Below are positions 15,115 to 49,773 of a stretch of 64,000 nucleotides of DNA, piece after piece (position 1 is the stretch's first letter; each line of letters opens with the position of its first letter). A program made the position numbers and the translations under genes. Where the stretch lies: contig OZ024743.1 of NCBI GenBank assembly GCA_964016885.1, positions 169,384,001 to 169,448,000 of the forward strand, written 5' to 3'. The notes beneath the pieces were generated by a model that worked only from the letters and a program-made list of their open reading frames with translations, had not been told where the DNA came from and did no database searches. This DNA comes from Eledone cirrhosa (lineage: Eukaryota).

Positions 15115-15126
15115 AATAATAATAAT

Positions 15127-19044: not shown

Positions 19045-19094
19045 GTTGGCTAGGATAGGAGGAAAATAAGTGAGAGGGGAGAAGTACAAAAATT

Positions 19095-21171: not shown

Positions 21172-21172
<1 letters not shown>

Positions 21173-25670: not shown

Positions 25671-25703
<33 letters not shown>

Positions 25704-25705
<2 letters not shown>

Positions 25706-25891
25706 TTGTTTCTACTTTAGGCACAAGGGTAGCAATTACCCAGCCCATTACTGGTACTTTATTTTATCGACCCCGTAAGGATGAAAGGCAAAGTCAACCT
25801 CGGCGGGATTTGAACTCAGATCGTAAAGGGACGTAACTATGCTGGAAAGCATGGCGTCCGACCCTCTGCCTATACTGCCAATCCACCGCCC
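25704..25891 (-). mobile_element. tRNA-derived SINE
   Basis: A-box-like TGGCAGTATAGG, B-box GAGTTCAAATCC, core GCCTTTCATCCTTACGGGGTCGATAAA (resembles the Meta domain), tail into (ATT)n. Confidence 0.85.
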
Positions 25892-25896
25892 TTGTG

Positions 25897-25996
25897 CAAA
25901 TCACCGCTTGTTGTTCAAATCACCGCTTGTTGTTCAAATCACCGCTTGTTGTTCAAATCACCGCTTGTTGTTCAATCCACCGCTTGTTGTTCAAAT
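25897..25996 (+). repeat. 19-bp minisatellite CAAATCACCGCTTGTTGTT x5
   Basis: Direct tandem units without spacers. Confidence 0.95.
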
Positions 25997-27864
25997 TTAA
26001 TGCTGTGTAGTGTCTATCGTTTTGGTTGTTTTGTTTTGTTTGCGCTTGTTGTGGGTTTGTTTCTGTTTCGCATTTTGGTGACTTTTGTGGTGTAGGTGGT
26101 GGTGGTGTTGGGGTTAATGATGGTGATGGTGTTGGTGTTTGGGGTGATGGGGTTGGTGATGCTGGTGTGGATGGTGGCATATCTGTCCTAACTTTTTTGT
26201 TAATTTATTTGTTTCCCTCTGTATTATGTTTTTGGAGGGGGAAGGAAGAGAATTTTTTTTTTTTTTTTCCTGATACCGTTTCCCACTCATCGTCGTCACA
26301 ATCTGTCTCCAGTTGTGATAGGCCGGGGAGTGGAAAATCCTCCACAGGCGTTAGTTTTGGTTGTGGCGTGGTGGATGGTGTAGGCGCTGGTGCTAGTTCT
26401 GAAGCGTTGGGTGGTGGTGGTGTTGGTTTTGCTACTGTTGCTGGGGTTGTTGCTGTTATAGTTGCTTCTGTTGTTGCTGCTACAGTTGTTGCTGCCATCT
26501 CTGCTACTGGTGGTGTTGATGGTTGAGTCACTGGGGTGGGTAGGAGAGGTGGCCTCAACCTTTTAGCCTGAGGCCAGAAAGCCCTTAGGTGGGTTCCTTC
26601 ACCACAAACGACACACCTAGGCCTTCTGCCCTCGACAATTACGGTGAGGTGGCTGCCGTCAGTGAGGTCTATTACCTCTGGGATCTCCTCAATGCTTTTT
26701 TGGTCCACTTGGATCAGGAGCTCCCTCCCAGATCCGGACCAGTTCTCCTGCTTTTCTTTTGCTATTGCTATTATCTTTGTGTTGGATTCGATGCCGGCGA
26801 GGACGGCTGCTATTAGCCAGGGAATTTCGATGGCCGGTGGAACGTGGGTCACCCTGATCTTTACGCATCGCTGACCACAATAGCTTGGGACGAGTGTGAA
26901 GTCGTCACTTCTTAATGGGGCCATGGAGTGTTCTCTAGCCTCCTCTGGTGTTTCAAAGAACACGTCCACGGTTCCATACTTCTGCCCACGTCTGATGTGG
27001 GTTTTTCTTGCCCATATATGTCCCAAAGCTTTTTGGATTTGGGACTCGGATGCCCGTTCCACTCGGCGCGATTTTACATTTATTGTTCGATACGACACGG
27101 TGCATAGGCGCCGATGCTCCATTTTATTAGGTGGGGGGTGAGGCTGACCCTGTACTCATCTTTCTTTACCATTTGTTTGGAATTTTCTAAATCCTCCTGA
27201 GTTACCGTAAATGCTTCGAACTGTTTTGCTACTCTGTCAAAACTCAGGGTGGTTTTTTTAATGTCATCGTCGTTGTTGTTGCTATCGTTATTTTTGTTAT
27301 TATTAATTTTAGTTTCAGTTGTGGTGGTGGTGACGTCAGTGAAAGTCGGTTTGGGAGAGTCCATTTTGGTTGAAAATATTTCGACACCACGAGTTAATTT
27401 ATTTTTTCCTTTTGTTTCTGTTGTCGCCGTGGGGGGGGGGTCGCGGTAGTGATGGTGGTGGTGGCGGCTTTAACACCTGCAGTCATTGGTAATGGCGGGA
27501 AATGAATGTCTGCCTGAGACAAATTTAAAATATTGCTAGTGCTTAAATTGTTTGTGTTGGAAGACGTATAATCATTTACAATGGTGGTGTCGGTGTGAGG
27601 TGTTAATTTGTGAGAAAGGCTTTCAGCTGCTTGGTGCAGTGGTGAATTAGCCATTTTTTTTTCAAAGAAATTTTTTGATAATCATAAAAGTTTAAATTTT
27701 GGGCACAAGGCCCCAATCTTTTTGGGTGTCCTTTTCGGAAAACAATGTATGTGCGCTTATATATAATTAACAATAAAAATTTTCCATAAATGGCAATTTT
27801 TAACAAACGGAAATAACAAACCTTTGCGGAGCTCACGATGATACGATTTACTACGTAGGTCGCC
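25997..27864 (-). mobile_element. Tx1 5' UTR and ORF1, tandem duplicate of T3 (T4)
   Basis: 26322-28082 is near-identical to 24100-25890 (offset about 2194); no ORF2. Confidence 0.9.
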
Positions 27865-27897
<33 letters not shown>

Positions 27898-27899
<2 letters not shown>

Positions 27900-28083
27900 T
27901 TGTTTCTACTTTAGGCACAAGGGTAGCAATTACCCAGCCCATTACTGGTACTTTATTTTATCGACCCCGTAAGGATGAAAGGCAAAGTCAACCTCGGCGG
28001 GTTTGAACACAGATCGTAAAGGGAGTAACTATGCTGCAAAGCATGGCGTCCGACCCTCTGCCGATACTGCCAATCCACCGCCT

Positions 28084-28085
<2 letters not shown>
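27898..28085 (-). mobile_element. tRNA-derived SINE (duplicate of 25704-25891)
   Basis: Near-identical sequence; (AAT)n on both sides. Confidence 0.85.
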
Positions 28086-28141
<56 letters not shown>

Positions 28142-28143
<2 letters not shown>

Positions 28144-28990: not shown

Positions 28991-28999
28991 ACATTACAA

Positions 29000-31900
29000 T
29001 GAAACTTATGCTTATTCATTTTTGGGGCCCTTTCTGCCTGTGTGTTTGTTTGTTTATGTGTGTTCGTATACAGCGTGGTGATAATGCCACACAAGGGCCA
29101 AGTGGAACGGCGAATCCACAGATGGCTATGTAACCATACATTCGCCAATCCTCGATAAGAGTGTTTAAATATCGAACATAAACAGTTCGAATAACGGTGA
29201 AATGGAGACTAGAACGTCATGTGACAGACTCTCACCCAACAGGTGCCCCCTGGCTCAGCAGCAGGAACCTGACTGTCAACCAAATACTGCTGATGTTGGA
29301 GGAAGAAGAAGAAGGAAAGGGGCCAGAACCAACTGGACGAAAGAATTGAATAGAACTGTTATGCAATGTTACCTGAAAAGTAACCCCAAGGAGAGGGGCT
29401 ACAGGAGACGGATGCATAACATCTGGAACGAGATTGGTCTATTTAAATTAGATGAACAAAAATTGGTCGTGCAGGCTCGGATAATAAGAACTAATGGGTG
29501 GATAAGCGAGCTGGAACTGGAGGAACTGAGCAGAGAGAATGGCTTGGAGATGGCGGGTGTAGTATGCCAGACAAGCGAGCCAGTGGGAAATGAAGGTGAA
29601 GAGGTCCTGAGAACGGAGGAACCACCCGAAGCAGACAATGATCTGAATACTGAGATAAATAATACCTGGAACAGAGATACGGCCACTGAGGAGATGAATG
29701 CTGACGGGCTAGGACAAGATTCGGTTGACATCCTAAATTTAGTGGTAGATGAATTGAACAATGATAGTGGGAGACCTATGAACCTAAGATTTGTAGACAG
29801 GAAAAAGTTAAAAGAAACAACAGCTAAGGTAAACAAAGTCATCCCATACCTTGAGGCGAGGAGCCTTCACCAGTGCAACAATATCCTCAAAGCAACAGCA
29901 AATACGGTGAGGAAACTACTTGGTATAAAAGCGAGAGGAAACAACAGACAAGAAAGAGCAGAGCCGTGGTGGAAGAAGCGACTGAGTGGGCAAATCGGGG
30001 AAATGAGAAATGACATAGGAAAGCTTGAGTCACTACTGAATGGGACACTAAAAAACATAGGCACTAAAAATAGACTGGAAATAAAGTACAAAACTAAGAG
30101 GAAAAAGCTAAATATTATCATAGAGGAACTGAAGCAACGCATTGTAGCAAAGAGTGCAAAAATCAGGCGATACGAGAACAGAGTCAGTCAGTATAAACAG
30201 AACCGCATGTTCGACAACAACCAGAATGCTGTTTGGACAGCTTGAGGGGAAAGAAAGAGGCAACGACTTGATCCCTGGGGCGGAGCAAACTAAAACATTC
30301 TGGAGAGGAATATGGGAGCAGAATGTTAGACATAATGTCCAGGCAGGGTGGATTGAGACAGTTCAGAAGGAGATCAGTGAACAGGCACACCAACAAACTG
30401 ATTTGAGTATCACAGTTGAAACTCTTAAGGGGCAGGCCAAAAAACTAACCAACTGGAAATCACCAGGCCCAGATGGTGTGCAGGGGTATTGGATTAAAAA
30501 TTTAACATCCCTCCACCCGAAGCTGACGGCCATGTTCAATGACTGCTTGGTGTCGGGTGAGGTGCCAGAGTGGTTGACAAAAGGTACCACAGTTCTGATA
30601 ATGAAAGACCGAATCAAGGGTAATGATGTTACCAACTATAGACCTATCACATGTCTGTCCGTAATGTGGAAACTGTTGACGAGCATTGTGTCTGAGGAAA
30701 TCTACCATCACCTCCACACAAACAACTTGTTACCGGACGAACAGAAAGGATGCTGAAAGAAGTCACGTGGTACAAAGGACCAGTTACTTATTGATAAGAT
30801 GGTAATGGGGAATTGCAGGAGGAGACACACTGATCTTGCCATGGGATGGATAGACTACAGAAAGGCATTTGACATGGTGCCTCATTCTTGGATCACCAAA
30901 AGCCTGGAGATCTTCAGGGTGGCAGATAACATCAGACAGTTGCTGGGCAGGAGTATGGGGTCCTGAGAGACAGAGTTGATATCAACTGGAGTATCCTTGG
31001 GAAGCGTGAAGATCAAGAGAGGTATATTCCAGGGAGATAGCCTGTCCCCTCTGTTGTTTGTCCTTGTCCTGATGCCCTTGACCATTATGCTGCGAAAAGT
31101 GAGAGCAGGATACAAGTTGGGAAAGGGAGAGCTTACCATCAATCACCTCCTCTTCATGGACGATCTTAAGCTCTTCGGGAAAAGTGAGAAGGAGTTGGAT
31201 GTGCTTGTTGACACTGTCCGTATTTTCAGCAGTGATATATGTATGCAGTTTGGTATTAGTAAATGTGGAGTCATTGTGATGAGGAGGGGTAGGTTGAGCA
31301 GAAGTAACGGGATCCAGATACCAACAGGTGAGATGATAAAGGAAATTGACTCTGAGGAAGGATACAAGTATTTGGGCGTTCTGGAGGCTGATGGCATAAA
31401 GAACAAAAAAATGAAGGAAGTGTTAAGAACTGAATACATTCGGAGAGTAAGGAGCGTATTGAAGTCACATCTGAACAGCAGAAATGCCATAAGCGCAGTA
31501 AATTCCCGAGCTGTGTCTATTATTAGGTACAGTGCGGGAATTCTGAGATGGAATGTTGCTGAACAAAAAGAAATGGATAGGAAGACTACGAAGCTATTGA
31601 CTATCTGCAACATGTTCCACAAGAGGAGTGATGTCGATAGACTCTACCTAAGGAGATCTGAGGGTGGAAGAGGTCTTATCAGCATAGAGGACTGTGTTCA
31701 GATGGAGAAAAACAACCTATACAAATACGTGACCTATAGTAAGGAGCCAATGCTCAGAACTGTACTGAAGGAGGGGACAGTAGGCCAGGGGATGTCCAAG
31801 GAGGAAATAACATCAAGGAGGAAGAGCAGCCTTAAGGGAAAATCCCTTCATAGTACCTTCTTTGAGAAAACTGAATTTAGAGATCCACAGACATGGAACT

Positions 31901-32675
31901 GGTTGAGAAGAGGAGACCTCAAAAAGGCTACAGAAGGAATGCTAATGGCTGCGCAGGAGCAGGCCCTCAAAACGAAGTGGTTGAAGCACCATATCTACAA
32001 GGAGGAGGCTAGCCCACTATGCAGGATCTGTGGAGAGAGAGAGGAGACTGTGGCTCACATTGTGTCCGAGTGTAAACACCTAGCCCAGACCCACTATAAG
32101 GGCTGGAGACACGATGTGATGGGCAGGGTGATCCACTGGCACCTGTGCAAAGTAAACAATTTACCACATTCTGAGAAATGGTATGAGCATAGGCCAGAGG
32201 CGGTGATGGAGAACAATCAGGTGAAGGTGCTGTGGGATTTTAGGATACAGACGGACAAAAAACTGGAACACAATAGACCTGACCTGGTGGTTGTGGACAA
32301 AGAAAAAAGATCGTGCCTGATTGTGGATGTGGCCTGCCCGTTCGACACGAGAGTGCAAGAGAAGGAGAGGGAGAAAATTAACCGATACCAGGACCTAAAG
32401 TGGGAGGTGAAAAGGATTTGGAACTGCCATGAAGTCAAAGTGATCCCGATTGTCATAGGCGCACTGGGGACTATCTCCAAAAGTTTCCAGGGATGGTTAA
32501 AGAAAATCGGCCCCTTCACGCTTTTTGGAACGCTTCAAAAGGCATGCTTGCTTGGAACAGCAAGAACCCTCCGATACGTCCTGAATATCTGAGGCTGCAG
32601 GTAGTGGCTTGATATTCAATCCAACGGACTTTCCAGTTAACCAACATCAATGACTGAGATTCAAGGAATAACAAA
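29000..32675 (+). mobile_element. R4/Dong-type LINE family A, apparently full length
   Basis: Single long ORF, short 3' UTR, ends in (AAT)n; 5' boundary uncertain. Confidence 0.9.
29202..32592 (+). pseudogene. RT plus CCHC plus restriction-like endonuclease ORF (one frameshift, two stops)
   Basis: WTKELN..CY..GYRRRM, WKSPGPDG, NYRPITCL, GIFQGDSLSP, LFMDD, CRIC..H..C, RHD, NRPDLVV..DVACP. Frameshift near 30225; TGA at 30754 and 30964. Confidence 0.92.
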
Positions 32676-32696
32676 AATAATAATAATAATAATAAT

Positions 32697-33825
32697 TGGA
32701 TTATCTACATATCTAAGGGAATCACATGATTGGATGATCAAACTCGTTTTGAAACACGAAAGCATCAAAAGATCATATTCCATTACAAAAGATGCACAAA
32801 GATACAGTAATGGACTACAAATTTCAGAAGTCCCATTTACTGCTGAAATGGAAAACACAGAAAAAGCAAAGCAGGTAAAAGTAACTGCAAAGAAAGAACT
32901 GCTACAGAAACTGGCTAAGAAATGGCAAGAAAAGCCTCTGTATGGAAAATACCCAGAGCGAGCTAACAATCCTGATGTTGACAAAACTCATCAGTGGTTG
33001 GCATCCTCTGGACTGAAATCGGAGACTGAAGGACTGATTATATCCGCACAAGATCAGTGTCTGCCAACAAAAAATTACCAAGCCAACATAATAAAAAATG
33101 GGTGCAGCCCATTATGCCGTGTATGCAAAAAACAACCAGAGACCATTGACCATATAATTTCAATGTGCAGTCCTATAGCACCAACCGAATACCTAAACAG
33201 GCATGACAGAGCTGCACAATACATACATTGGATAATGTGTAAGCATTTTGACCTGCCCCATCAAAAGAATTGGTGGGAGCATCAACCACCTCCCATACTT
33301 GAAAAATATCACATCTCAATCTTGTTGAACTTTAGCATCCAAACAGACCGAAAAATAGATGCAAACAGACCTGATATAATATTGAAGGACTTTCAAAAGA
33401 GGGTATGCCTGCTAATTGATATGTCTGTTCCAATAGACAAGAACGTATCTATAAAAACATTTGAAAAATTGAGCAAGTATAAGGACCTGGAGATAGAAAT
33501 TGGAAAAATGTGGAAATTGAGAACTAAAACAATACCAGTGGTTGTAGGCGCTCTGGGAATGATACCTAAGGGGTCTAATGATTACTTATCGCAAATCCCA
33601 GGAAACCCGCGTATAGGAGAAATACAAAAGATAATACTAATGGGAACTGCCCATATACTAAGGAGGATTCTGTCAATATAAGTACATCACAAGTCTAAAC
33701 ACTAAAGATGCATGTGTGAATATGTATGTTCTTTCTTGAACATAGCGGACCTTGTTGTCTCTTGAGGTCACTGGTTGTGACTTAGTGATAACTCGTATGA
33801 ACATAAAGCAAGATAAATGCAACTG

Positions 33826-33826
<1 letters not shown>
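32697..33826 (+). mobile_element. R4/Dong-type LINE family B, 5'-truncated
   Basis: Open frame to 33681: AQDQCL, CRVC..H..C, RHD, NRPDIIL; (AAT)n on both sides. Confidence 0.9.
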
Positions 33827-33853
<27 letters not shown>

Positions 33854-33857
<4 letters not shown>

Positions 33858-36800
33858 TCTTTATTGGCCACAAGGGCTGACATCAAGAAAAACATTATAG
33901 ACGGCACAGGACGGTACAGAATGTTACGATGTGGGTTTTGTGCGTGTAAATGTGTTTATTATTTATATAAGAAAAGAAAAAAAGACATAGAAACATATAT
34001 ATATATAAACAATAAAAATGAAAATTGAAACAATAAAAAATTCAGCAATAGGGGGTAACCCTTCGAGGGTTACTCGTGGCGAAAACCACACAAAAGACCA
34101 CGGCCACCCTGACCACCAGGGCAAGTGCCCTCTCTCAATTTTTCCATCTCTCAAACTACAGACGTATATTCAGAGCGGTCCCGTTCACTCGGACCATTCT
34201 CGCTACATTCATCCACCTTTCAACAAACTTGCTAGAAGGTAGCACTTGCCTCTCCACCCTGATTTTCCTCTTCAAGTGAAACTTGAAAAAGTTAATTAGG
34301 GATTCGCCGAAGAGGAAAGTGTCTGTCTTTAACCCTTTCAACCTTGTCCACCACACAATCTCTTTAGCCATGGCCACCAGGTAGATGAAAACCGCTTGCC
34401 CTTCCTCCTCGAGGGAAGACGGCGAGACCATCTGCACAATAGAATCAGTCGATAACCGGATCAGTCCTACACGCGACAGCAACTGTTCGACATAGATCCA
34501 CAAGTCAGCAATGCTCGGGCACTGAACGAGTGCGTGCACGACGGTTTCGTCGCTCTGCGCGCATCTTGGACAGGCTCGGCTGACGGCACTTCCGTGTCTG
34601 TAGAGCTTATCTCGAACCGGCAGCGATCCCCGGTAGCACTGCCAGGCCAGGGATTTTTGGAAGTTATCCATAGGCCTGGGCTGAAAGTTCTCCTGAAGAG
34701 AGCAAACAGCTGATCGTCTTCGACGCCCAGGATATCTCCGAGAACGTCGTCGCACTTCCCCTCCACTAGTTCTCTATAGAATGCCGAGGTAGATGTTCCA
34801 CCGATACTGGTGCCCAGCTGGCAGAGGGCAGTGAGCGCCTGGAGACATTCCAGTTTCCAAGCGCTATCCCTCGGTCTTTTTATGACCCAGAACTGCAGCT
34901 CCATCAAGGAGACGAGCTGTGGGAAAACGTGCCTGGCGAAAGGTGACCACATCTGTTCACCGTCAAGGAAGTACCAGTGATGTCGCAACCTCAGCGCATG
35001 TTTGCGCATCATCAGCCATGGCATGCCCAATCCTCCACGCAACGGGTGTTGACAGCAGATCGATCGTCTGACCATGAGAGCGTGTCCCTTCCACAAAAAT
35101 CGGAAGAGGAGGCGCTCCATTTTGGTGAGAGTTGGGCTGGGGCAAGGGACGACGGTGAGGCGGTAGCAGATGACGGATGCGATGTACGCATTCGCCACCT
35201 CCGCCCGGCCTTTCAGGGACAGCTTCCTCTCGACCCATTTCTGGGTGAGGGAGGCCACCTTGCTCGTCACCTCGTTCCAGTTTTTCTCCATCTGGAGGTC
35301 CGGTCCGAACCAGACCCCGAGCAATTTAACCGGTCCGTCCGCCCAACGCCCCATGACGCTATCGGACGGCATGGACTTTCCTCCCCAGGTGCCGAGCTGC
35401 AAGCCCACCGACTTTTTCTGGTTTATCTTTGCTCCTGTCCCCGCTTCGTATTACTTGTGGGCGGTGCCGAGCATCTGGACGTGTCTGGTGCTCGACACCA
35501 CCACGGTGACCTCGTCGGCATAAGCCGACTCGTATTTCCATCATCCTAGTTCGCGTGGGATGACCCTCATCGCCCCCAGTTTGTGAAGTAACGGCTCGAG
35601 AGCCAATACGTACAAAAGGGACGAGAGGGGACAACCCTGGCGGACCGAGCGCATGATGCTGAACGACTGCGACACGTGACCGTTCACCCTCACAACTGAG
35701 GAGATGTCGCTGTGCATTGCAGCGATCCAACCCCTGAAAACAGGCCCGAAATCGGCTGCCTCGAGGACCGCCGCCAGGTACCGATAGTCGACCCTATCGA
35801 ATGCTTAGGATTGATCTAAGTTTATCAGGGCCCCACCCGTGCCAGGTTCCTTAACCACCCTCTCTATGATGTGGAGGTTGTAGTGTATGGATCTGTCCGG
35901 AATGGTCAAAATCTTGAACCCTGCGTTTAGCAGGGTTATGGGCCTGAAATTATCGATAACCTCCCTTTTGTTCGGGTCTTTTCTCAGCAGCGCCACCGCT
36001 CCCCGGCTCACAAAACTGGGAATGCTCCCGTTTTGCTGACAGTTGCAGTAGACGTCTGCCAAGAGGTCACCGAACAAGTCTTGCATAAATGCATAAAGCT
36101 CGTAGAGAAGACCATCCAAACCTGGCGATTTACGCCTCGTGCAGTTAGCCATCGCTTCCCGTATTTCACCGGCTGTTATTGGCTTTTCGCAACACTGTGC
36201 TGCGGTCGTCGAGAGCCGAGGTAGTCCGTCGAGGTATGCACTGAAGTCCATGCCCCGATCCGGGCCGCCGCTGCTCCCGAACAGTTCAGCAAAGTGCTGC
36301 TTCACACATTTGTTCGGGTTAGAGCAACACGCAGCCGTTTTGGTCAGACAAAGACCGAATTGTGGTTTGTTGCCACGTAGCGGCTCTGCCACCCGGGCCC
36401 ATTGGACGGCTTTTGTCCCCTCGTGTTTCAGAGCACGCGCTCTAGCTCTGACAACGCAGCCTTCGTGTTTTGCGTTGAAGAATTGGTCGAGTGCCAATCT
36501 CGCCTTAAGCAAGTCGGTTGCGATGCCCGTCCTAAACGCCTCTTCTAGCTTTCTGACTAGCTCTCCCTCTACTCTATTTTCCTCTATCACTAGTCCTTTG
36601 CTAAACCTAATCGACTCTATTTTAATTGCCCTTTTCAGGGCGAACCACCACCTGTTGTTGACGACCGCTCCCGTCAACGCCCGCTTAACTAATACGCTAA
36701 TCCGGTCTCTGTAGGCTTTGCGCGTTCAGCTTCCAGTAACCGGGCCCTTGTCTATGAAGTCTGTCTATATCGATATCACAGATCACAAATTTGTGGTCTG

Positions 36801-37740
36801 TGTAGTCGACTATTTTAAATTGTGGACAACTTATACTAGCCTTATCTAGTTCTCTGCAGAATACCCTATCAAGATCGATCTGGATGGCCCGATGCGGTTT
36901 GTCTATGTCCACATTGGCACATTCGGGTGATCCAGTCGATACCTGTCAGACAGTTCAAAACGTCTGAGCAGGTTGGTTAAGCTCTTACACCCTCCTCCCC
37001 TATCCACTAGCCCCACACAATCCCAGCGTGCATCCAAGATACCGTTCCAGTCGCCCACTAACACTAAAGAGCGGGACGTTCCAAGAAAGGTCTCTAGACG
37101 TCCGAAGAAATCTGGCCGTCCTGCCCCTGTTGGGGCGTAGACGGCTACTAGCCTGAAAGCATTGCTTTCGCTGCCGGTCACGTCCAGCACCACTGACCTA
37201 CCTTCTGGTTCCAGGAAGATGGCCCGTATGGCGAGATCCAAGCCTCTCCGAAAAAGGACGGCAACCCCTCCCCCGATCCTGGACGGCTGGGAGATGCGTA
37301 TACATCGTAGCCGCCGAAGATCGGTGCGAAGGCTTGTGCTTCGGAGATTCTGGTCTCGCTGACGGCCACCACATCTATGTTTAGTAACCTGAGGTCGTTG
37401 AGCAGGTGACCCTGCTTCCAAGATGACCCCAGGCAACGTGCATTTATACTGCCTATTCTGAGTACGGCCATGCTGGGTGAGAAACGGGGCAAGTGAGAAA
37501 GGGTCGCTTACCTTGACCGTGTGGTGAAGGGACAGTAGACCGTCCCTTTGGCTGGTCATGGGTGTTTCCAAGAGGATGTCAGTGTATATCCTCTTGGTAA
37601 CCGACTCTGTGAAGTCTCCAACTACGTTGGGGAATTTTTGTTTTAAAGATTTGTACTGTTATATTGAGATTTCAATGATGCTTATGTTTGTCGGGAAAGG
37701 TGTTGGTGTTGGTGGGGTGTAGTAGTTTTTTCTGTGATGT
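33854..37740 (-). mobile_element. Tx1/L1-clade LINE truncated in ORF1 (T6)
   Basis: ORF1 stop at 37508-37510; ORF2 37471-34156 (MAVLRIGSINAR, GDWN, YTDH, AYADE); tail into (ATT)n. Confidence 0.9.
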
Positions 37741-37744
37741 TAAT

Positions 37745-40700
37745 GGTTTCTTTATTGGCCACAAGGGCTAACACGAATAAAAACATTATAGACGGCACAG
37801 AACAGTACAGGACGATACAAAGTGGGTTTTGGTCGTGTAAACAGGTTATAACAAAATTGGGTTAGAAATCCAAAAGTTGAAACAACAAAAATTCCCCCAA
37901 AAGGGAGAAACTTCCGAGGGTCACTCGTGGCAAAAACCACACAAAAAGGCCACGGCCACCCTGACCACCAGGGCAAGCGCCCTCTCTCAGTTTTCCCACT
38001 CGTCAGTCTACAGGTACATACTCAGAGCGGTCCCATTCACTCGGACCAGACTCGCTACATTCACCCACCTTTCAACAAACTTACTAGAAGACAGCACTTG
38101 ACTCTCCACCCTGATTTTCCTCTTCAAGTGAAACTTGAAAAAGTTAATCTGGGATTGGCCGAAGAGGAAAGTGTCCGTCTTCAACCCTTTCAACCTTGTC
38201 CACCACACAATCTCTTTCGCCATGGCTACCAGGCAGATGAAAACTGCCTGCCCTTTCTCCCCTTTAAAGGAGGATGTCGGGGCTATCTGCACAATGGAAT
38301 CAGTCGATAACCGGATCCGTCGTACATGCGACAGCAACTGTTCGACATATCCCCACCAAGTCAGCAATCCTCAGGCACTGAACGAGTGCGTGCAGGACGG
38401 TTTCGTCACCCTGCGCTCATCTCGGACAGGCTCAGCTGACAGCACCTCCGTGCGTGTAGAGTTTATCTCGAACCGGCAACGCTTCCCGGTAGCACTGCCA
38501 AGACAGGGATTTCTGGAAGTTGTCCATAGACCCTGGTCTGAAAGCTCTCTTGAAGAGAGCGAACAGCTGATCGTCTTCGACGCCCAGAGTCTCCCCGAGA
38601 GCGTCGTCGCTCTTTCCCTCCACTAGCCCTCTATAGAACGCCGAGGTAAATGTTCCACCGATACTAATGCCCAGCTGGTAGAGGGCAATGAGCGCTTGGA
38701 GACAATCCAGCTTCCAAGCGCTATCCCTCGGTCTTTTCCTGATCCAGGAGTGCAGCTCCGTGAAGGAGACAAGCTGGGGAAAAACACGTCTGGCAAAAGG
38801 CAACCACACCAGTTCACCGTTAAGGAAGCACCAGAGATGTCGCAGCCTCAGCGCATGTTTGCGCATCATCAGCCACGGTATGCCTAGTCCTTCACGCAAC
38901 GGGTGTTCACAGCAAATGGATCGTCTGACCATGGGAGAACGTCCCTTCCACAAAAAGCGGAAGAGTAGGCGCTCCATTTTGATCAGAGTTGGGCGGAGAC
39001 AAGTTACGACGGTCAGGCGGTAGCAGATGACGGACGCTATGTACGAATTCGCCACCTCCGCCCGCCAATTCAGAGACAGCCTCCTCTCGGCCCATTTCTG
39101 GGTGGTGAGAGAGGCCACCCTGCTCGTCGCCTCGCTCCTGTTTTTGTCCATCTGGAGGTCCGGAGCGAACCAGACCCTGAGCAATTTAACCTGTACTTCC
39201 GTCCAGTGCCCCGCGACGCAGCCGGATGGCATGGACTTTCCTCTCCAGGTGCCGAGTTGCAAGCCCACCGACTTTTCCTGGTTTATATTTGCTACTGTCA
39301 CCGCTTCGTATTCCTTGAGAGCGGTGCCGAGTATCTGGACGTGTTTGGTGCTCGACACCACCACGGTGACGTCGTCGGAATAAGCTGACACGGATCTCCC
39401 GCATCCCAATTCGCGTGGGACACCCCTCATCATCTCTAATTTGTGCAGTAACGGCTCTATGGCCAGTACGTACAAAGGGGACAAGAGGGGGCAACCCTGG
39501 CGGACCGAGTGCATGATGCTGAAAGGCTGCGACAGGTGACCATTCACCCTCACAATCGAGCAGATGTCGCTGTGCATCGCAGTGATCCAGCCCCTGAAAA
39601 CGGGCCTAAAGCCGGCCGCCTCGGGGGCCGCAGCCAGGTACCGATGGTCGACACTATCAAATGCTTTAGATTGATCAAAGTTGATCAAGGCCCCACCCGT
39701 GCCAGGTTCCTTAACCACCCTCTGTATGATGTATCGCATGAGATGAAGGTTGTCGTGGATGGATCTGTTCAGAATGGCGCACGTCTGCGCCTTTCCTGCC
39801 AGATCACCGACGACGATCGCCAATCTCTTTGCTAAGACCTTGGCCAAAATCTTAAACTCTGCGTTTAGCAGAGTTATGGGCCTGAAGTTGTCTATAACGT
39901 CCCCCTTATTCGGGCCTTTTTCTCAGCAGCGCCACCGCTCCCCGGCTCACAAAACTGGGAATGCTCCCGTTCTGCTGCCAATTGCAGTAGACACCTGCTA
40001 AGAGGTCACCGAAGAAGTCTGGCATATACGCATACAGCTCGTAGGGCAGACCATCCAAACCTGGCGATTTACCCCTCGTGCAGTTAGACATCGCTTCCCG
40101 TATTTCACCTGCTGTTACCGGCTTTTCGCAGCACTGCGCTGCGGTCGTCGAGAGCGGCGGTAGTCCGCGGCAGTATGCACTGAAATCCATACTCCGATCC
40201 GGCCCAACGCCGCTCTCGAACAATTGAGCAAAGTGCTGTTGGAAAGCGGCACACATCTGCTCGTGTTCGAGCAACATGCGCCCGTTTTGATCAGGCAAAG
40301 ACAGAATTGTGGACTTGTTGCCACGTCGCGCCTCCACCACCCAAGCCCATTGACGGCTTTCGTCCCCTCGTGTCTTAGAGTACGCGCTCTAGCTCTGACA
40401 ACGCAGCCTTCATGCTTTGCGTTGAAGAATTGGTCTAGTGCCAATCTCGCCGCAAGCACGTCGGTTGCGGTGCCTGTCCTGAACGCATCTTCTAGCTTTC
40501 TAACTAACTCTCTGTCGCTGTATATCCTCTTGGTAACCGACCCTCTGAAATCTCCAACTGCGTTGGGGTATTTTTCTTTTTATATTTGTAATGTTCTATT
40601 TTTATTTCATTGATGTTTAGGTTTGTCGGGAGAGTTCTTGGTGTTGGTGGGGTTGAGTAGTTTTTTTCTCTGATGTCTGTGTACTGCTTTATATGTTGTA

Positions 40701-42586
40701 AGAGTTCTTTATTTTCCATGTTTATGGCTTTTGTGGGGAGGGGTGATTTTGTTGTTGTTTTCTTGTTGTTGCTGTTGGGTGTGTGTGTTTTGTTGCGTTT
40801 GCGATATTGGTGTTTTTGGTGATGCTGGTGGTGGTGTGGTTGTTGTTGGTGGTGATGCTTGTGGTGGTGATGGTAATGGTGGTGGTGTTGCTGCAAGTCT
40901 CCTTGCAGCCTTTACCCCTCTTTGTCTGCCTTCACTTTTGGAGGGTGAAGCTAAGGGGTTTTTCCTTTTTTGTTTTTTGTGGCAGACCGTTTGCTACTTC
41001 CCTCCCACCTCATACACCATGTCAGATTCCGTGGTGTCTGGGAGGGGTATGGGCTCCACTGCTGTTGGTGGTGGTAGTGGGGCCCGCTCCGGCGATTTTA
41101 CCGCCGGTGTAGCTATTGCGACTGTTTGTGTTGCCGCCACTGCTGCCGCTGCTTTAGTTGTCCGTGGCCATGGTATGGGTGCCACGGACGTTGCCCTCCT
41201 ACTCACCATGGAATGGTCTTCTGCCTCTGTTGCTGGACTGCTCTTGGTAGCAGCGTATCAGGCGTCGGAAGGTGGGGGGCTCTCTTCTTGGCTGTCTTCT
41301 GCTGGAAGAAGGCCCTGAAGAGATAGCACTTTGGGCGCCTTCCTTCCACGCTTCTAGGGAGTTCGAGCCCTTCTTCGAGGTCTATGATGTCTGGGATGGC
41401 CTTGATGCACTCCTGGTCAGTCTGTATTAGCATTCGCATGCCTATTCCTGACCAGTTCTCTCTTCCCCTTCTCTGTATTTGCAGTATGGTGGTCTTCTCC
41501 TCGATTCCAGCCAGTACAGACGTGGCCAGCCAAGGTATTGGCACATCGGGCGGGACCTGGGTCACTTTGACCCTCACAATTTTCTGCCCGCAATAGGAGG
41601 CCACCAAGACTATCTCCTCACTCTTTAGGGTTTCCAAAGAGTGAGATTTCGCCTCTTGGGGGGTGGCGAAATGTACGTCTACTGTGGCGTCCTTGTTGCC
41701 TCGGGTGATGTGGGTTTTGCGCGCCCAGACGCACCCCAAGGCCTTTTGGATTTGAGCCTCCGTGGCTCTCTCGACCCGATGTGACATTTTGCTTACGGTG
41801 CGGTAAGTACCCGTGCGCAGCTACTGATTTTTTGAAGAAATCGGGTGGAGGTTTCAGGGAAACTATTGTTTCTCGACACCATGGCTCTTACGACTGCCAT
41901 CTCCTCCTCCGTGACTAGCACTGTCTGTATATTTCGGGCCACACCTGCGAAAGAAGTGATCCCTTTTTCAGCGGCAGCATTATTGCTGCCGCTACTGCTG
42001 CTACTGGTCTTGTTGGTGCTGTTGCTGTTGCTACTGCTACAAACGGTGTTGTTGTTGTTGTTGCTGTTATCACTGTTGTAGTTGGTTGTGTTTTTGGTGC
42101 CACCGTTGTAGTTGTTTTCGGTGCAATTTGTATTGTTGCTGTTGGTGTTGTTGTTTATTTTCTTGTTAGTGGTGTTAATATCGTTGTTGCATTTTTTGTC
42201 ATTTTTTTCTGTTGTCTGTATTTTGGTTGACGCTGTTATTGTAGTTGGTGTGCTAATTTTTTTCAAAATTAGTGTTCTCAGAGTTGTCTTTGTTCACGTT
42301 GTTTGTGGTGGTATTTGTTGTATGAATTTTACTAATCCTCCTCTGAACTTTTACGCCATTGTCACACGACAGCAGACATATTGCTTGGGGGCATGGCTCA
42401 AAAGTAAAATGTGCAAATATTGTTCAAATATTTGAGCCAAAAGGCCCAAATATTATACTTTCCCCTTCACAGGGCAAAGTCCAAGGGTTTATATCCCTTA
42501 CACAACAAGAAAAATTAACAACAAATAATTTTAACAGGCAAATAAAGCGACTTACTGGGAGCAAGCAAAATACGTCCGATTAGACC
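37745..42586 (-). mobile_element. Tx1/L1-clade LINE with both ends; APE domain deleted (T7)
   Basis: ORF1 ATG about 42359; junction near 40510 skips to ORF2; RT ORF 38432-39847 (AYSDD). Confidence 0.9.
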
Positions 42587-42595
42587 AATAATAAT

Positions 42596-42690
42596 AATTG
42601 TTTCTACTTTTGGCACAAGGCCAGCAATTACCAGTGTATTACTGGTACTTTATTTTATCGACCCCATAAGGATGAAAGGCAAAGTTAACC
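42596..42690 (-). mobile_element. 5'-truncated SINE with target-site duplication
   Basis: TAGACCAATAATAATAAT at 42581 and 42691. Confidence 0.85.
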
Positions 42691-42720
42691 TAGACCAATA
42701 ATAATAATAATAATAATAAT

Positions 42721-45180
42721 GCTTTCTTTATTAACCACAAGGGTTGACACAAAGTAAAACATTAAGGACAGTACAGGACAATACAGGACGGTACAAATGG
42801 GCATTTCTGCGTGTAAAAAAAACAAAAAAACAGAGGATGTAAAAAAAAAGTAAACAATGACAAATTCCCCAATAGGGGGAGGGGGGAGAAACTTCCGAGG
42901 GTCGCTTGTGGAGAAAGCCCACATAAAAAGCCATGGTTATCCTGACCACTAGGAGAAGTGCTCTCTTCCAGTTTTCCTCCCACTGGCACACGCTCATGGT
43001 AGGTCCATTCACACAGGCCATTGTTGCCTCTCTCATCCACTTTTCAACAAACTGGCTGGAAAGCAGCACTTCCCTCTCCAACCTGATTTTCCTTTTCAGG
43101 TGAAACCTGAAAAAGTTAGTGAGGGCGTCACCGAAGAGGAAAGTACCCGTCTTCAACCCTTTCAGACGTGTCCACCATACGATCTCTTTTACCATGGCCA
43201 CCAAGCAGATAAAAACTGCCTGCCCTTCCCGGCTAAAGGAAGGCGGCGCCGCAATTCTCACGATGGACTCAGCTGATAGCCGGATCAGTTCTACACAGGA
43301 CACCAGGTATTCGACATAAACCCAGAAGTCATCAATGCTCGGACACTGGACGAGTGCGTGCAGGACGGTTTCATTGCCCTGCATGCATCTCGGACAGGCC
43401 CGGCTGACGGCACTTCAATGCCTGTAGAGTTTATCCCAAACTGGCAAGGCTCCTCGGTAGCATTGCCAGACCAGGTATTTCTTGAAGCCCCGGCCCGAAA
43501 GTTCTGCCGAAGAGATTGGCTAGTTGGTTTTCGTCGGCGCCCAAGACGTCATCTCTCTTTCCCTCCACTAACCCTATATAGAACGCCAAGGTGGAGTTTC
43601 CACCGATCGTATTGCCCGACTGGTCGAGGGTTATAAACGCCTGAAGACATTCCAGTCTCCAAGCGCTGCTCTCGGTCCTTCTCTGGATTGACCCAGGACT
43701 GCAGCTCCGTCAAGGAGACGAGCTGGGGAAACACGCGTCTAGCAATGGGCGACCACACCTGATCACCGTTGAGGAAGAGATGGAGATGCCGTAGCCTGAG
43801 CGCATGTCTGCGCATCATCAGCCACGGCATGTTTTGCGTTCGACACCACTACTGTGACGTCGTATGAATATGCTCACGCGGTTTTTCCGCATCCCATTTC
43901 GAGCGGGACCCCATCAACGTCTCAAGCTTGTGCAGTAATGGCTCGAGGGCCAATACGTACAATAGGGACGAAAGAGGACATCCTTGGCGGACCAAGCGCA
44001 CAATGTTGAACGGTTCCTAAAGGTGGCCGTTCACTCTCACCACAGAGCAGATGTTGCTGTGCATGGCAGCGATCCAGCCTCTAAAGACAGGCCCAAAGCC
44101 AGCCGCCCTCAGGACTGCCGCCAGATAACGATGGTCAACCCTATCGAAAGCTTTCGGCTGATCTAAATTGCTCAAGGCCCCACCCGTGCCAGGTTCCCTA
44201 GCTACCCTCCCCACGATGTCTCCCATGAGGTGGAGGTTATCTGTCTGGAATGATGCATATCTGCGCCTCTCCCACCAGACCATGGACGACAATCGCCAAC
44301 CTCTTTGCTAGCACTCTTTGCTAGCACTCTGTGTTTAGCAGAGTTATGGGCCTGAAATTATTTATGTTATCCCCCTTGTTCGGATCATTTCTTAGCAACG
44401 CCACTGCTCGACGGCTCACAGAGCTGGAAGTTCTCCTGTTCTGCTGCCAGTTGCAGTAGACGTCCGCCAAGAGGTCTCCGAACAAGTCTGGCATATGTAC
44501 GTAAATTTCGTAGGGTAGACCATCCAAACCAGGCGATTTACCCATTGTGCAGCCAGTCATTGCCTCCCGTACTTCAGCAGCTGTTATCGGCTTTTCGCAA
44601 CACTCCGCCTTAGTGGCCGAGAGCCGCGGCAATCCGTCGAGGTAGGCACTAAAGTCCTGCCCTCGAACTGCTGAGCAAAGTGTCGCTGAAAAGCCGCACA
44701 TATCTAGTAGCATGCGCCCGTTGTGGTCCACCAAAGACCTGATCTTGGCTTTGTTGCCACGACGCGTCTCCGCTACCCGGGCCCATTGAACGGCTTGTCT
44801 GAGAGCACGCACCCTAGCTCTGACAACGCAGCATACGTGCTTTGCGTTGACAAATTCGTCGATAGACAATTTCGGCGCAAGCATGTCGATCGCGATGTCT
44901 TTTCTAAGCGCCTCGTCTAATTTGCTAACTAGTTATCCCTCTGCTCTATTTTTCTTTATTACTAACGCCTTAATAAACCTACTGGAGTCTATTCTAATCG
45001 CTCTTTTCAGGGCAAACCACCATTTGTTGTTGACGATGGCCCCCGTCAACGCTCGCTTAACTATCCGGGACGATTGGAGATGTGTAGTCGTCGAAAATGA
45101 GTGCGAATGTCCGTGCCTCCGAGATTCTGGTCTCGCTGATGGCCACCACATCTGTGTTTAGCAACCTGAAATCGTTGAGC
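42721..45180 (-). mobile_element. Tx1/L1-clade LINE ORF2 remnant with several deletions (T8)
   Basis: KSPGLDG, NFRPITLLN, KAFDRV, CCHC; (AAT)n on both sides. Confidence 0.88.
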
Positions 45181-45194
45181 ATAATAATAATAAT

Positions 45195-45686
45195 AATTGT
45201 TTCTACTTTTGGCACAAGGCCAGCAATTACTCAGTGCATTACTGGTACTTTATTTTATCGACCCGACCCCGTAAGGATGAAAGGTAAAGTTAACCTCGAC
45301 GGGATTTGGACTCAGAATGGCAAGGACCGTAACTCTATGCTGCAGAGCATGGTATCCGACCCTCTACCGATACTGCCAATCCACCGCCATAATAAATAAT
45401 AATAATAATAATAATAATATTAATAATAATAATAATTATAATGATAATTGTTTCTACTTTTGGCACAAGGCCAGCAAATTACCCAGTGCATTACTGGTAC
45501 TTTATTTTATCGACCCCGTATGGATGAAAGGCAAATTTAACCTCGGCGGGATTTGAAATCAGAATGGCAAGGGTCGTAACTCTATGCGTGAAAACATGGT
45601 GTCCGACCTTCTACCGATACTGTCAATAATAATAATTGTTTCTACTTTAGGCGCAATGCCAGCAATTATCCCAGTGTATTCCTGGT
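45195..45686 (-). mobile_element. Three tandem SINE copies (45195-45388, 45446-45625, 45634-45686) separated by (AAT)n
   Basis: Same head, core and tail as 25704-25891. Confidence 0.85.
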
Positions 45687-45704
45687 AATATTAATAACAA
45701 CAAT

Positions 45705-48700
45705 GATTTCTTTAATGGCCAAAAGGAGAAAAACATACAGACGGCACAGAACGATACAAAGTGGGGTTTGGCCGTGTAAAAAGGTTACATCAAGATAGAA
45801 ATGTGTAAAAACAAATTTAAAAATTCAAACAACAAAAATTCCCCCAAAAGGGGAAGCCTCCGGGGGGTCACTCGTGGCGAAAACCACACAAAAGACCACG
45901 GCCACTCCTCAGTCTACAAGCGCATACTCAGAACGGGCCACTCACTCGAACCAGATTCGCCACTTTCACCCACCGTTCAACAAACTTACTCGAAGATAGC
46001 ACTTGCTTCTCCATCCTGATTTTCCTCAAGTGAAATTAGAAATAGTTAATCAGGGGTTCGCCGAAAGGGAAAGTCTCCGTCTTCAACACTTTCAATCTTG
46101 TCCACCACACAATCTCTTTCGCCATGGCCACCAGGCAGATGAAAACTGCCTTCCCTTCCTTCTTTTTAAAGGAGGATAGCGGAGCCATCTGCACAATGGA
46201 CTCAGTCGATAACCAGATCATTCCTACACGCGACAGCAACTGTTAGACATAGCCCCACAAGTCAGCAATTCTCGGGTACTGAACGAGTGCGTGCAAGATG
46301 GTTTCATCGCCCTCCGGGCATGTCGGACAGGCTCGGCTGACAGCACCTCCGTGCCTGTAGAGCTTATGCCGAACCGGCAATGCTCCCCGGTAGCACTGCC
46401 AGGCCATAGTGGAAGTTGTCCATACGCCCCGGGCTGAAAGTTCTCTTGAAGAGAGCGAAGAGCTGATCGTCTTCGACGCCCAGGGTCTCCCCGAGAACGT
46501 CGTTGCTCTACCCTTCCACTAGCCCTCTAGAAAACGCCGAGGTGGATGTTCCACCGATATCAGTGCCCAGCTGGTAGAGGGCGGTGAGCGCTTGGAAACA
46601 TTCCAGCTTCTAAGCGCTATATCTCGGTCTTTTCCTGATCCAGGACTGCAGCTCTGGAGAACGTCCCTTCCACAAAAGAACGGAAGAGAAGGTGCCCCAT
46701 TATGGTCAGCAGATGACGGATGCGATGTACGCATTCGCCATCTCCGCCCGACATTTTAGAGACAGCTTCCTCTCTGCCCATTTCTGGGTGAGAGAGACCA
46801 CCCTGCTCGTCACCTCGCTCCAGTTTTTTCCATCTGGAGGTCCGGACCGAACCAGACCCCGAGCAATTTAACCGGTCCTTCCGTCCATCTCCCCACTACG
46901 CTGTCGGACGGCATGAACTTGTCTCTTCAGGTGCCGAGTTGCAAGCCTACCGACTTTTCTTGGTTTATCTTTGCTCCTGTCACAGCTTCGTATTCCTTGA
47001 GAGCGGTGCCAAGCATCTGGACGTGTTTGGTGTTCGACACCACCACGGTGACGAGATTGGCGTACGCCGACACGGACCTCTTGCATCCCAGTTAGCGTGG
47101 GACACCCCTCATCTCTCCAAATTGTGCAGTAACGGCTCGAGGGCCAGTACGCACAAGAGGGACGAGAGGGGATAACCCTGGCGACAGAGCGCATGATGCT
47201 GAATGGCTGCAACAGGTGACCATTCACCCTCACAATCAAGCAGATGTCGCTGTGCATCGAGCGTTCCAGCCCCTAAAAACGGGCCCGAAGCCAGCCGCCT
47301 CGAGGAACTGTGGTCGACCCTATCAAATGCTTTAGATTGATCCAAGTTGATCAGGGCCCCACCCGTGCCAGGTTCCTTAACCACCCTCTCTACGATGTAT
47401 CGCATGAGATGGAGGTTGTCGTGGATGGATCTGTCTGGAGTGGCGCATGGCTGCACCTCTCCCACCAGTTCACCAATCTCGTTGCTAACACCTTGGCCAA
47501 AATCTTGAAATCTGCGTTTAACAGAGTTATGGGTATGAAGTTGTCTATAACGTCCCTCTGGTTCGGATCTTTTCTCAACAGCGCCACCGCTCCCGGCTTA
47601 CAAAACTGGGAATGCTCCAGTTCTGCTGCCAGTTGCAGTAGACCTATGCCAAGAGGTCTGGCATGTACGCATAAAACTTTCGTCCCTTCGTGTCTTAGAG
47701 CACGTGCTCTAGATCTGACAACGCAGACTTCATGCTTTGCGTTGAAGAATTGGTCGAGTGCCAGTCTCGCCGCTAGCACGTCGGTTGCGATGGCTGACCT
47801 AAACGCCTCTTCTAACTTTCTAACTAGCTCTCCCTCTACTCTATTTTCCTCTATCGCTACTCTTTTGCTAAACCTTATCGATTCCACTCTAATTGCCCTT
47901 TTCAGGTTAAACCACCACCTGTTGTTGACGATCGCACCCGTCAACGCACGCTTAACTAATTTGCTTATCCCAGTCTCTGTAAGTTTTGCGCGACGGGAAA
48001 GACGCCTATGAAGTCTAGGTCGACTTCACAGATCACAAATTTGTGGTCCGTGTAGTCGACTACCTTAAAATGTGGACAGCCTACACTAGCCTTATCTGTT
48101 TCCCTACAGAATACCCTACCTAGATACGATCTGGATAACCCGATGCGGTTTGCCGATGTCCACATTGGCACATTCGGATAATCCAGTCGATACCTGTCAA
48201 ACAATTCAAAACGTTTGAGCAGGTTGGTGAGGTTTTTACATCCTCCTCCCCTATTTACTAGCCCCACATAATCCCAGCGTTCATCTAAGATACCGTTCTT
48301 TAGTGTTAAAGAGCGTGACGTTCCCAGAAAGGTCTCTAGACGTCTGAAGAAATCTGGCCGTCCTGCCCCTGCTGGGGCGTAGACGGCTACTAGCCTGAAA
48401 GCATTGCCTCGTTGCCGGTCACTTCCAGCACCACCGACTTACCTTCTGGATCCAGGAAGATGGTCCATATCGCAAGATTTAAGCCTCTCCTAAAAAGCAC
48501 AGCAACTCCGACCCGTCCCCCCACCCCGCTCTCGGACGGCTGGGAGATGCGTATACATCGTAGCCGTCGAACATCGGTGCGAAGTCTCGTGCTTCGGAAA
48601 TTTTGATTTCGCTGATGGCCACCACATCTATGTTTAGTAACCTGAGAACGTTAAGCAGATGACCCTGCTTCCAAGATGACTTCAGGCAACGTACATTTAT

Positions 48701-48850
48701 ACTGCCTATTCGAAGTAAGGCCATGTTGGGTGAGGAATGGGGTAAGTGAGAAAGGATCACCTACCTTGATCGTCCCTTTAGCTACTCATGGGTGTCTCCA
48801 AGATAATGTACGTGTATATTCTCATGGTAACCGACCCTCTGAAGTCTCCT
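45705..48850 (-). mobile_element. Older Tx1/L1-clade LINE truncated in ORF1 (T9)
   Basis: MALLRIGSINVR at 48724, YTDH, DQSKAFDRV; many indels. Confidence 0.88.
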
Positions 48851-49464
48851 CTTGAAATATCAAGTGAAATTGAGGAATTAAAACTTCATATTGTTAATGA
48901 AATAATTACTAACAAACTACGGTGAAGAGTCTGTAACTCCCCCTCCTTCCCTTTCTTTCATTACTTAATTTCTTTTTTCTTTTTCTTTTCCTTTTTCTTT
49001 TTCGTTTCCTTATTGCCATTTATAGTGTACATATAAATTTTGTTTTTAAGAAGCCCATGGCTGTGGGTTGCAAGAAGGCATCATTTTATTTTGGATGATA
49101 ATCTCGAAGGAGTTGTGGTGTTGGGTAAATGCTGTCTAGTTTGTTGGAATGGGCGATTTTCTCCAATCATTGTACATAGTGTTGTTTTGCCTGAAACTCC
49201 TATACTTTCCCACTAACCACCATCACCACTATATATAATTAAGATACCTAATCAATTAGCCTAACGAGTTATTTTGAACCATTTATGTGTCTCCACTCCT
49301 TAATTGCTTCCTGGAGTTTAGGTTTCAATAAACAGTGTAATGTGTATCTTTTTCCCAATGAAATAACAGCTACAAGTAACTAAATAGTTCATCAATAGAA
49401 AAATAGTATCAATATCACTGACTACTGAAATATAAATCTCTCTCTGTTTTTCAGATATGTCCTT

Positions 49465-49473
49465 GTGTGTATG

Positions 49474-49508
<35 letters not shown>

Positions 49509-49517
49509 ATGTTTATT

Positions 49518-49588
<71 letters not shown>
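49465..49588. repeat. Compound (TA)n/(TG)n microsatellite
   Basis: Direct reading. Confidence 0.95.
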
Positions 49589-49589
<1 letters not shown>

Positions 49590-49688
49590 CTTATTTTGGG
49601 GTCTCAATATAGTAAACTTGGAATTTATTTATGATAAAAACTGTATAAACATGATATTATTTGCAGTAACAATAACAATATTAAAAAT

Positions 49689-49773
49689 AATTGTTTCTAC
49701 TTTTGGCACAAGACCAGCAATTACCAATACATTACTGGTACTTTATTTTATCGACCCCGTAAGGATGAAAGGC
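49689..49773 (-). mobile_element. 5'-truncated SINE
   Basis: Tail and core match the other copies. Confidence 0.8.

Follow-up and report, generated by a model that had tools for sequence, protein, structure and literature searches.

We describe here a short interspersed nuclear element (SINE) and an L1-related long interspersed nuclear element (LINE) which end in what appears to be the same 25-nucleotide hairpin motif. Both lie within a 64,000-nucleotide stretch of the Eledone cirrhosa genome (contig OZ024743.1 of assembly GCA_964016885.1, positions 169,384,001 to 169,448,000; hereafter the window, in whose numbering coordinates are given). Tail sharing is a textbook rule for SINE/LINE pairs; what may be new here is a Tx1-like tail on an animal SINE, together with the in-register hairpin motif. 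On balance we think it probable that a Tx1 element of this lineage mobilizes the SINE by recognizing the hairpin and inserts it into ATT microsatellites. We favor this interpretation because the two elements share an end-anchored motif, because the stem of the hairpin changes on both sides, because both use the same strand of the repeat, because one SINE copy is flanked by an 18-nucleotide target site duplication (TSD), and because the LINE has an L1-clade second open reading frame (ORF2). Mobilization by a Tx1-type LINE, as proposed in an earlier note on this DNA, is the best explanation available within the window, with stringent tail recognition as its presumed mode, although the active partner may lie outside it, perhaps as a sister Tx1 family absent from the window.

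Seven SINE tails are present (at 25704, 27898, 42596, 45195, 45446, 45634 and 49689), all on the minus strand. Since the copies at 25704 and 27898 sit inside one 1.8-kb duplication of 97.5% identity they represent a single insertion, leaving six independent SINE copies. The seven Tx1-like 3' ends (15127, 15663, 21172, 33854, 37745, 42721 and 45705) are likewise all on the minus strand, as the earlier note had stated for the SINE relative to the LINE, and form a head-to-tail array occupying 15.1-48.9 kb of the window. They belong to two subfamilies, whose last 120 nucleotides are 77-84% alike within a, 82-96% within b and 64-76% between the two. Counted back from the terminal repeat, SINE and LINE ends have a common, gap-free register of stem, CTTGT, stem, AA, three bases, AGAAA, two bases and (ATT)n. 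In the complete SINE copy at 45195..45388 (minus strand) this terminal motif is found at 45198..45222, with stem TGGC, loop CTTGT, stem GCCA, then AA, AGT and AGAAA.

The last 25 nucleotides before the repeat of this SINE copy match the seven Tx1-like tails, without gaps, at 14, 13, 14, 15, 17, 14 and 14 positions. The mean of 14.4 of 25 compares with 9.5 ± 1.8 in dinucleotide shuffles with shifts of ±3, of which 147 in 20,000 score as high (p = 0.007); for letter shuffles the figures are 14.3 of 23 observed versus 6.2 ± 1.9, with 0 of 20,000 as high. Identity between SINE and LINE is unevenly distributed across the columns, being 0.90 in the loop, 0.86 at the closing pair, 0.93 at the AA and 0.97 at AGAAA, compared with 0.21 in the outer stem and 0.0 at the three bases before AGAAA. 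Upstream of about -19 it is 0.29, which is background. A TAATG at -37 in both elements was considered and rejected as homology; the longer SINE subfamily described below differs there. A matrix built from the seven LINE tails ranks the six SINE tails tested at 8, 11, 11, 11, 39 and 56 of 127,954 positions. The pattern CTTGTG-N8-AGAA, picked after inspecting the data, occurs 12 times in the window and is confined to six of the seven SINE ends and six of the seven LINE ends (chance expectation 0.18). The earlier count of 21 matching columns of 26 is reproduced by eye with the LINE copy at 37742, but it includes two gaps and three bases of the ATT repeat, and that copy is the best of seven LINE tails.

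The stem around the loop can pair in all three lineages with different bases, as GGC/GCC in the SINE, GCC/GGC in subfamily a and ACC/GGT in subfamily b. Across 13 tails (11 of them distinct) 79.5% of cells pair, and three of the four stem pairs change on both sides. The covariation score of 0.514 is not equaled in any of 500 shuffles (0.237 ± 0.061) and lies above the slid controls (at most 0.227), and RNAalifold predicts a 3-bp hairpin unprompted. The window holds 20 CCTTGTG sites; the next two pairs close in eight of the ten that lie in tails, at a site in the Tx1-like 5' untranslated region (UTR) and its duplicate, and in none of the eight others. An extended lower stem shared by the SINE and the LINE is also predicted, but it does not exceed chance (p = 0.11-0.31 where five pairs form) and we do not retain it.

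The site in the 5' UTR is a hairpin much like that of the SINE tail, GGGC[CTTGT]GCCC followed by an A-run, at 25496-25520 (minus strand), with its duplicate at 27690-27714. The stretch is 80% like the SINE tail over 35 nucleotides, closer than that LINE's own 3' tail. Our first reading of this feature (25516) as a decayed SINE tail is made less certain by a similar stretch at the corresponding place in the 5' UTR of another Tx1-like copy, at about 42430-42450. It is also a candidate for a second binding site or for an alternative source of the SINE tail.

The 5'-truncated SINE copy at 42596..42690 (minus strand), which lies in the (ATT)n spacer separating two Tx1-like copies, is flanked by an exact 18-nucleotide TSD (minus strand, 42691-42708 and 42581-42598) composed of (ATT)4 and the six flanking bases GGTCTA. 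These six non-repeat bases come from the 5' end of the next element. For other SINE copies, which have ATT runs on both sides, the limits of a TSD cannot be fixed. The earlier description of SINE tails as lying at AAT-type sequence applies to most copies, which end in (ATT)n, but not to that at 49689, which ends in a degenerate AT-rich stretch; the repeat is also lost at the LINE ends at 15663 and 37745. Most junctions between Tx1-like copies lie at (ATT)n, an arrangement from which one window cannot separate targeting from self-made tails. The window contains 21 runs of (AAT)3 or more on the plus strand versus one of (ATT)3 or more, so that the common strand of SINE and LINE follows from the target and is not independent of it.

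By their predicted domains (an APE-type endonuclease, a reverse transcriptase and a C-terminal zinc motif), the LINEs of the array belong to the L1/Tx1 group. They are likely Tx1 proper, and we term them Tx1-like. Pfam identifies RVT_1, zf-RVT and Exo_endo_phos in ORF2, the last of these below cut-off in the window fragments, whilst ORF1 has, by eye, a zinc-knuckle-like motif but reaches the cut-off with no Pfam family. In protein comparisons the ORF2 proxy was P0002, a full-length relative of 42% identity. Its best match in the PDB is human L1 ORF2p (248 bits, against at most 104 bits for R2), and it scores 360 bits with a zebrafish pol-like protein and 309 bits with a protein named TX1 149 kDa, and so stands nearer to these named Tx1-type proteins of fish than to human L1. 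A related-locus search with P0002 found none. In a quick tree that used 55 of 124 rows and included no L1 reference, the window copies form their own clade with support 99.

The mechanism that we propose runs as follows. A transcript made by RNA polymerase III from the tRNA-like head of the SINE would end in the hairpin, AGAAA and (AUU)n. The Tx1 ORF2 protein would bind the loop and the A-rich bases downstream of it, and the Tx1 endonuclease would nick an ATT microsatellite. The (AUU)n end could then anneal to the nicked (AAT)n strand and prime reverse transcription, and a second nick some 18 nucleotides away would give rise to the TSD. The SINE may have acquired its tail long ago, when a template switch carried the copying enzyme to a Tx1 3' end, the stem diverging afterwards.

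Sequencing runs bear on the abundance of the two tails. Four runs were mapped to the 441 nucleotides at 42560-43000 at 80% likeness, a procedure in which depth does not equal copy number; runs X1 and X2 have small word shares (0.11 and 0.07). The numbers of records placed were 91,005, 12,135, 122,372 and 162,373, with the depth mostly over the SINE. The loose ends reveal a longer SINE subfamily in which extra sequence separates the body from that same tail. Part of the Tx1 3' UTR, at 42755-42829, is covered about 20-50 times as deeply as the extreme tail in runs X3 and X2, and this segment may also belong to a different abundant repeat, which could be a second SINE.

A number of observations weigh against mobilization by a Tx1 of this lineage. 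In run X1, from another organism, depth is 97,508 on the SINE tail versus 6 on the Tx1 tail, which is therefore nearly missing there; the ratio of SINE to Tx1 tail depth is several hundred in runs X3 and X2 and about four in X6. The putative homology spans only about 25 nucleotides at 13-17 of 25, which is short for a young SINE. Unanchored local alignment of the 45195 tail, the commoner type, is significant with one of the seven LINE tails only (p = 0.012), although that of the 27898 copy gives p < 0.05 with six of seven. Local alignment of the BLAST kind thus mostly misses the match, which may explain why such pairs escape standard screens. The tails of the two Tx1 subfamilies are 76% alike, a figure within the span of 51-80% found elsewhere along the aligned 3' region. 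As to the hairpin, the covariation derives from three lineages only (the SINE, Tx1 a and Tx1 b), with the structure drawn from the same sequences, and two of five shuffle measures are not exceeded (236 and 389 of 500 shuffles as high). Folding is ordinary for the SINE tails (z = -0.62, -1.74 and -0.27) and for subfamily a (z = 0.69 and -0.13), only subfamily b being unusual (z = -2.90 and -2.33), and the hairpin is not the minimum-energy form in two of three SINE folds. The SINE at 27898/25704 has two broken stem pairs and that at 45634 two changed loop bases. At the outermost pair (42611) a variant is seen at 21-40% of depth in each of the four runs, and the rows listed contain no matching change in its partner base. 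Finally, a segment resembling a Tx1-like 5' UTR and the start of a Thr-rich ORF1 lies in the opposite orientation, on the plus strand at 28143-28980, behind (AAT)19. It could be inverted, could break the orientation rule, or could belong to a Dong/R4-like 5' region.

These points give some room to other explanations. The SINE might be moved by a LINE of another clade outside the window, such as CR1, L2 or Hero, with an ATT tail of its own; the likeness to Tx1 would then be convergence or shared borrowing, and the co-location would reflect the abundance of the SINE and the shared microsatellites. We regard this as rather unlikely, though several observations speak for it: the homology is short, at 56-68%; the SINE far outnumbers this Tx1 tail in three contig sets, the tail being almost gone in X1; Octopus vulgaris has active RTE, CR1, Hero and R2 elements besides 13 active L1-Tx1 families (PMC13282606, Table 1); and UCON3-type SINEs elsewhere carry RTE and CR1 tails in the families described in PMC7245038. 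Such an origin sits poorly with a loop, AA and AGAAA in exact register with the end and with stem changes that are two-sided. Among the LINEs of the window, moreover, we find none that matches the SINE tail better than Tx1, comparing the Dong/R4-like ends by alignment and the RTE-like ends by eye; tails of CR1, L2 and Hero fall outside this comparison. The two RTE-like ends carry (GAT)n and bear no resemblance to the SINE tail by eye.

A different possibility is that Tx1 does move the SINE, but through relaxed recognition of (AUU)n and annealing at the target, with the hairpin a relic of how the tail originated. SINE copies with a broken stem or altered loop do exist, Tx1 tails are no more conserved than other blocks of the 3' UTR, and the account given of crocodilian SINEU in PMC4494074 has it using Tx1 without a common tail. 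A relic would not be expected to retain its loop while the stem changes on both sides, however, and the broken copies may have mutated after insertion; we hold relaxed recognition to be improbable. We give very little credence to the idea, already disfavored, that the likeness of the tails is chance and that the SINE is moved by Dong/R4-like elements at the same microsatellite. Two such families are present in the same cluster, Dong elements target TAA repeats (PMC3812793, in its treatment of Dong), and the dinucleotide-shuffle p is just 0.007. But the Dong/R4-like elements end in (AAT)n on the opposite strand while the SINE copies end in (ATT)n, so that orientation still discriminates between the candidate LINEs. 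Dong/R4-like tails match the SINE tail at 7-13 of 25 positions on either strand (8-13 on the sense strand, with a lowest p of 0.037 in 16 tests), with only two nominal p < 0.05 in 32 tests over both strands.

Tail-sharing pairs in the wider L1 clade offer the closest parallels for mobilization by Tx1. Ohshima's table of 58 SINE/LINE pairs contains three L1-clade SINEs, from maize/sorghum and Chlamydomonas, none of them animal and none Tx1 (PMC3747384). In these pairs, ZmSINE2 and ZmSINE3 with LINE1-1_ZM and SINEX-3_CR with L1-1_CR, a tRNA-type SINE is likewise joined to an L1-clade 3' end, and the monocot pair is described as having a hairpin with a variable, compensated stem and a conserved loop and 3' flank (PMC3472496, PMC3747384). 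The plant and algal pairs share about 50-80 nucleotides and have poly(A) or T ends, whereas the pair described here is animal, of a Tx1-like lineage, and has about 25 shared nucleotides, the loop CUUGU, an (ATT)n end and a microsatellite target. The two-part reading suggested by our alignment also resembles that of the stringent L2 LINEs ZfL2-1, ZfL2-2 and UnaL2, in which the stem is read generally and the loop specifically. Experiments reported in PMC4176376 found the loop to be essential and the stem swappable; that L2-clade rule is assay-based, whilst ours is predicted from sequence.

Other systems resemble the present one in target or in body. Crocodilian SINEU is inferred to be mobilized by Tx1-Mar from a common target preference and orientation, but it has snRNA heads, poly(A) tails and a Mariner target, and no LINE shares the SINEU-1 3' end (PMC4494074); in the present case SINE and LINE do have their tail in common. 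The Tx1-type elements Kibi (TC) and Koshi (TTC), and Dong (TAA), form head-to-tail arrays in simple repeats, as does ours; the lists that include Kibi and Koshi name no Tx1-type element with an (ATT)n target and give no SINE partner (PMC3812793, PMC4494074). SINEs with a UCON3 domain also have the body directly after the head and tails that are exchangeable within the group, but their hosts are chordates, nematodes, cnidarians and xenacoelomorphs and their tails RTE, CR1 or unknown, with no mollusc and no Tx1 tail in Fig. S2 and the related passages (PMC7245038). The word Tx1 is absent from the main text of two SINE-LINE surveys (PMC5786205, PMC11481361), and a full-text literature search, with most subscription papers and Repbase Reports outside it and prior annotation hence possible, returned no animal SINE with a Tx1-derived tail. 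That this is the first such SINE, and that an ATT-targeting Tx1 reads a minimal CUUGU hairpin and so drives one of the dominant SINE superfamilies of octopods, we put forward tentatively, as a possibility that falls somewhat short of probable.

If correct, the pairing would mean that stringent RNA recognition survives in an animal relative of L1, defined within about 25 nucleotides. Ohshima has proposed that stringent recognition is ancestral and was lost in mammalian L1 (PMC3747384, PMC3472496); with an animal Tx1/SINE pair whose motif is 25 nucleotides long, that model could be put to a direct test. The pairing would further identify what drives a very abundant group of SINEs, and from it one could predict the places at which ATT microsatellites and LINE arrays expand in these genomes. 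SINEs account for 11.6% of the O. vulgaris assembly, whose repeat library contains 80 L1-Tx1 consensus families, and SINEs among recent insertions are mostly unclassified in the figures given by PMC13282606.

The element has the properties of a SINE, being short and non-coding, with many dispersed copies, 5' truncation, a simple-repeat tail and a TSD. Its complete length is about 190 nucleotides, three of the seven copies are clearly 5'-truncated, and the last 85 nucleotides are 87-98% alike (short copy excluded). The copy at 45195..45388 has a tRNA-like head with a B-box-like motif, a UCON3-type body, the 25-nucleotide hairpin tail and (ATT)n. It is the first of three copies chained across 45195-45684: a near full-length copy at 45446..45621 is linked by ATT runs between this and a further one, the short 5'-truncated copy at 45634..45684, which has the loop variant ATTGC and is situated within the tail of the Tx1-like copy whose end is at 45705. 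The complete copy at 27898..28083 is a variant with a broken stem (TACC/GCCT), and its duplicate is at 25704..25891; a 5'-truncated copy with a degenerate, AT-rich tail is found outside the array at 49689..49773 (all minus strand). The 1.8-kb duplication (24098-25893 / 26321-28085) carries a Tx1 5' end as well as the SINE, and is either a tandem duplication or a retained haplotype. Directly upstream of the duplicated SINE copy, at 25892-25996, a 19-nucleotide unit containing the initial bases of the head is repeated 5.5 times. We presume that similar elements are among the published octopus SINEs.

The tRNA-like assignment of the head, suggested by the B-box-like motif alone, is provisional. 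That motif is found in two of three copies tested and A-box patterns in none of the three; ARAGORN detects no tRNA gene and Rfam no tRNA match in the SINE, and there is no internal T4 run in the complete copy. The body, of about 50 nucleotides and directly after the head, matches by eye the UCON3 domain alignment in Fig. S2 of PMC7245038. It does not resemble, by eye, the BivaMeta-SINE1 and BivaMD-SINE1 sequences of PMC4824008 (supplement), and we have accordingly abandoned the earlier label of Meta-like, since the body is of UCON3 type by eye and unlike the two bivalve MetaSINE families compared. A 25-nucleotide UCON3-body pattern matched at least 120 metagenome loci (L001-L120) whose heads and tails differ, in keeping with a module that exchanges its tails. 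These loci have several kinds of head (tRNA-like, and 5S-like by eye) and several tails, and a scan gives an estimate of about 11,000 matching stretches. The tail motif has one match in the 256,738 bases of the 120 loci, and octopod-type tail or body patterns have none in the viral contigs and none in the genome contigs scanned.

In the LINE array (15115-48850) the Tx1-like copies, of which there are at least seven, are intermixed with two families of Dong/R4-like elements lying on the other strand, and all are joined at one microsatellite type. Subfamily a includes the copy at 37745..42586 (the T7 of the earlier note), with a 5' end, ORF1, an internally deleted ORF2 and the tail stem AGCC[CTTGT]GGCC, and the 5'-truncated copy at 33854..37744, which meets a Dong/R4-like end tail-to-tail across (AAT)9. 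A decayed, a-like copy at 45705..48850 has a degenerate tail and an approximate 5' boundary. Subfamily b includes the 5'-truncated copy at 42721..45180, with tail stem AACC[CTTGT]GGTT, the copy at 21172..25670, which has a 5' end, a zinc-knuckle-type ORF1 and an ORF2 of EN-RT-zf-RVT layout with an internal deletion, and two more copies in 15127..21089 with ends at 15663 and 15127 (all minus strand).

The two opposing families, both ending in (AAT)n, are on the plus strand at 29169..33853, with more fragments at 13039-15126, and have tails unlike that of the SINE. We take them to be Dong/R4-like from protein motifs; a search for named relatives of the protein returned no names. Their tails meet Tx1-like tails tail-to-tail at 33827-33853 and 15115-15126. 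They use the same repeats as the Tx1-like elements and the SINE from the other strand, and two LINE clades thus exploit (AAT)n from opposite strands in one cluster.

Elsewhere in the window there are Helitron fragments, a Penelope-like reverse transcriptase fragment, the two RTE-like ends and two long inverted-repeat elements (55841-59799; 60987-61487; 4792-5345 and 9930-12012; 49814-50404; 1294-1518). Among the proteins matched by a Helitron fragment, one from Octopus bimaculoides ranks first at 75%, followed by matches at 63-65%. Taken together, the Tx1-like, Dong/R4-like, RTE-like, Penelope-like and Helitron elements agree with the repeat orders that PMC13282606 gives for O. vulgaris.

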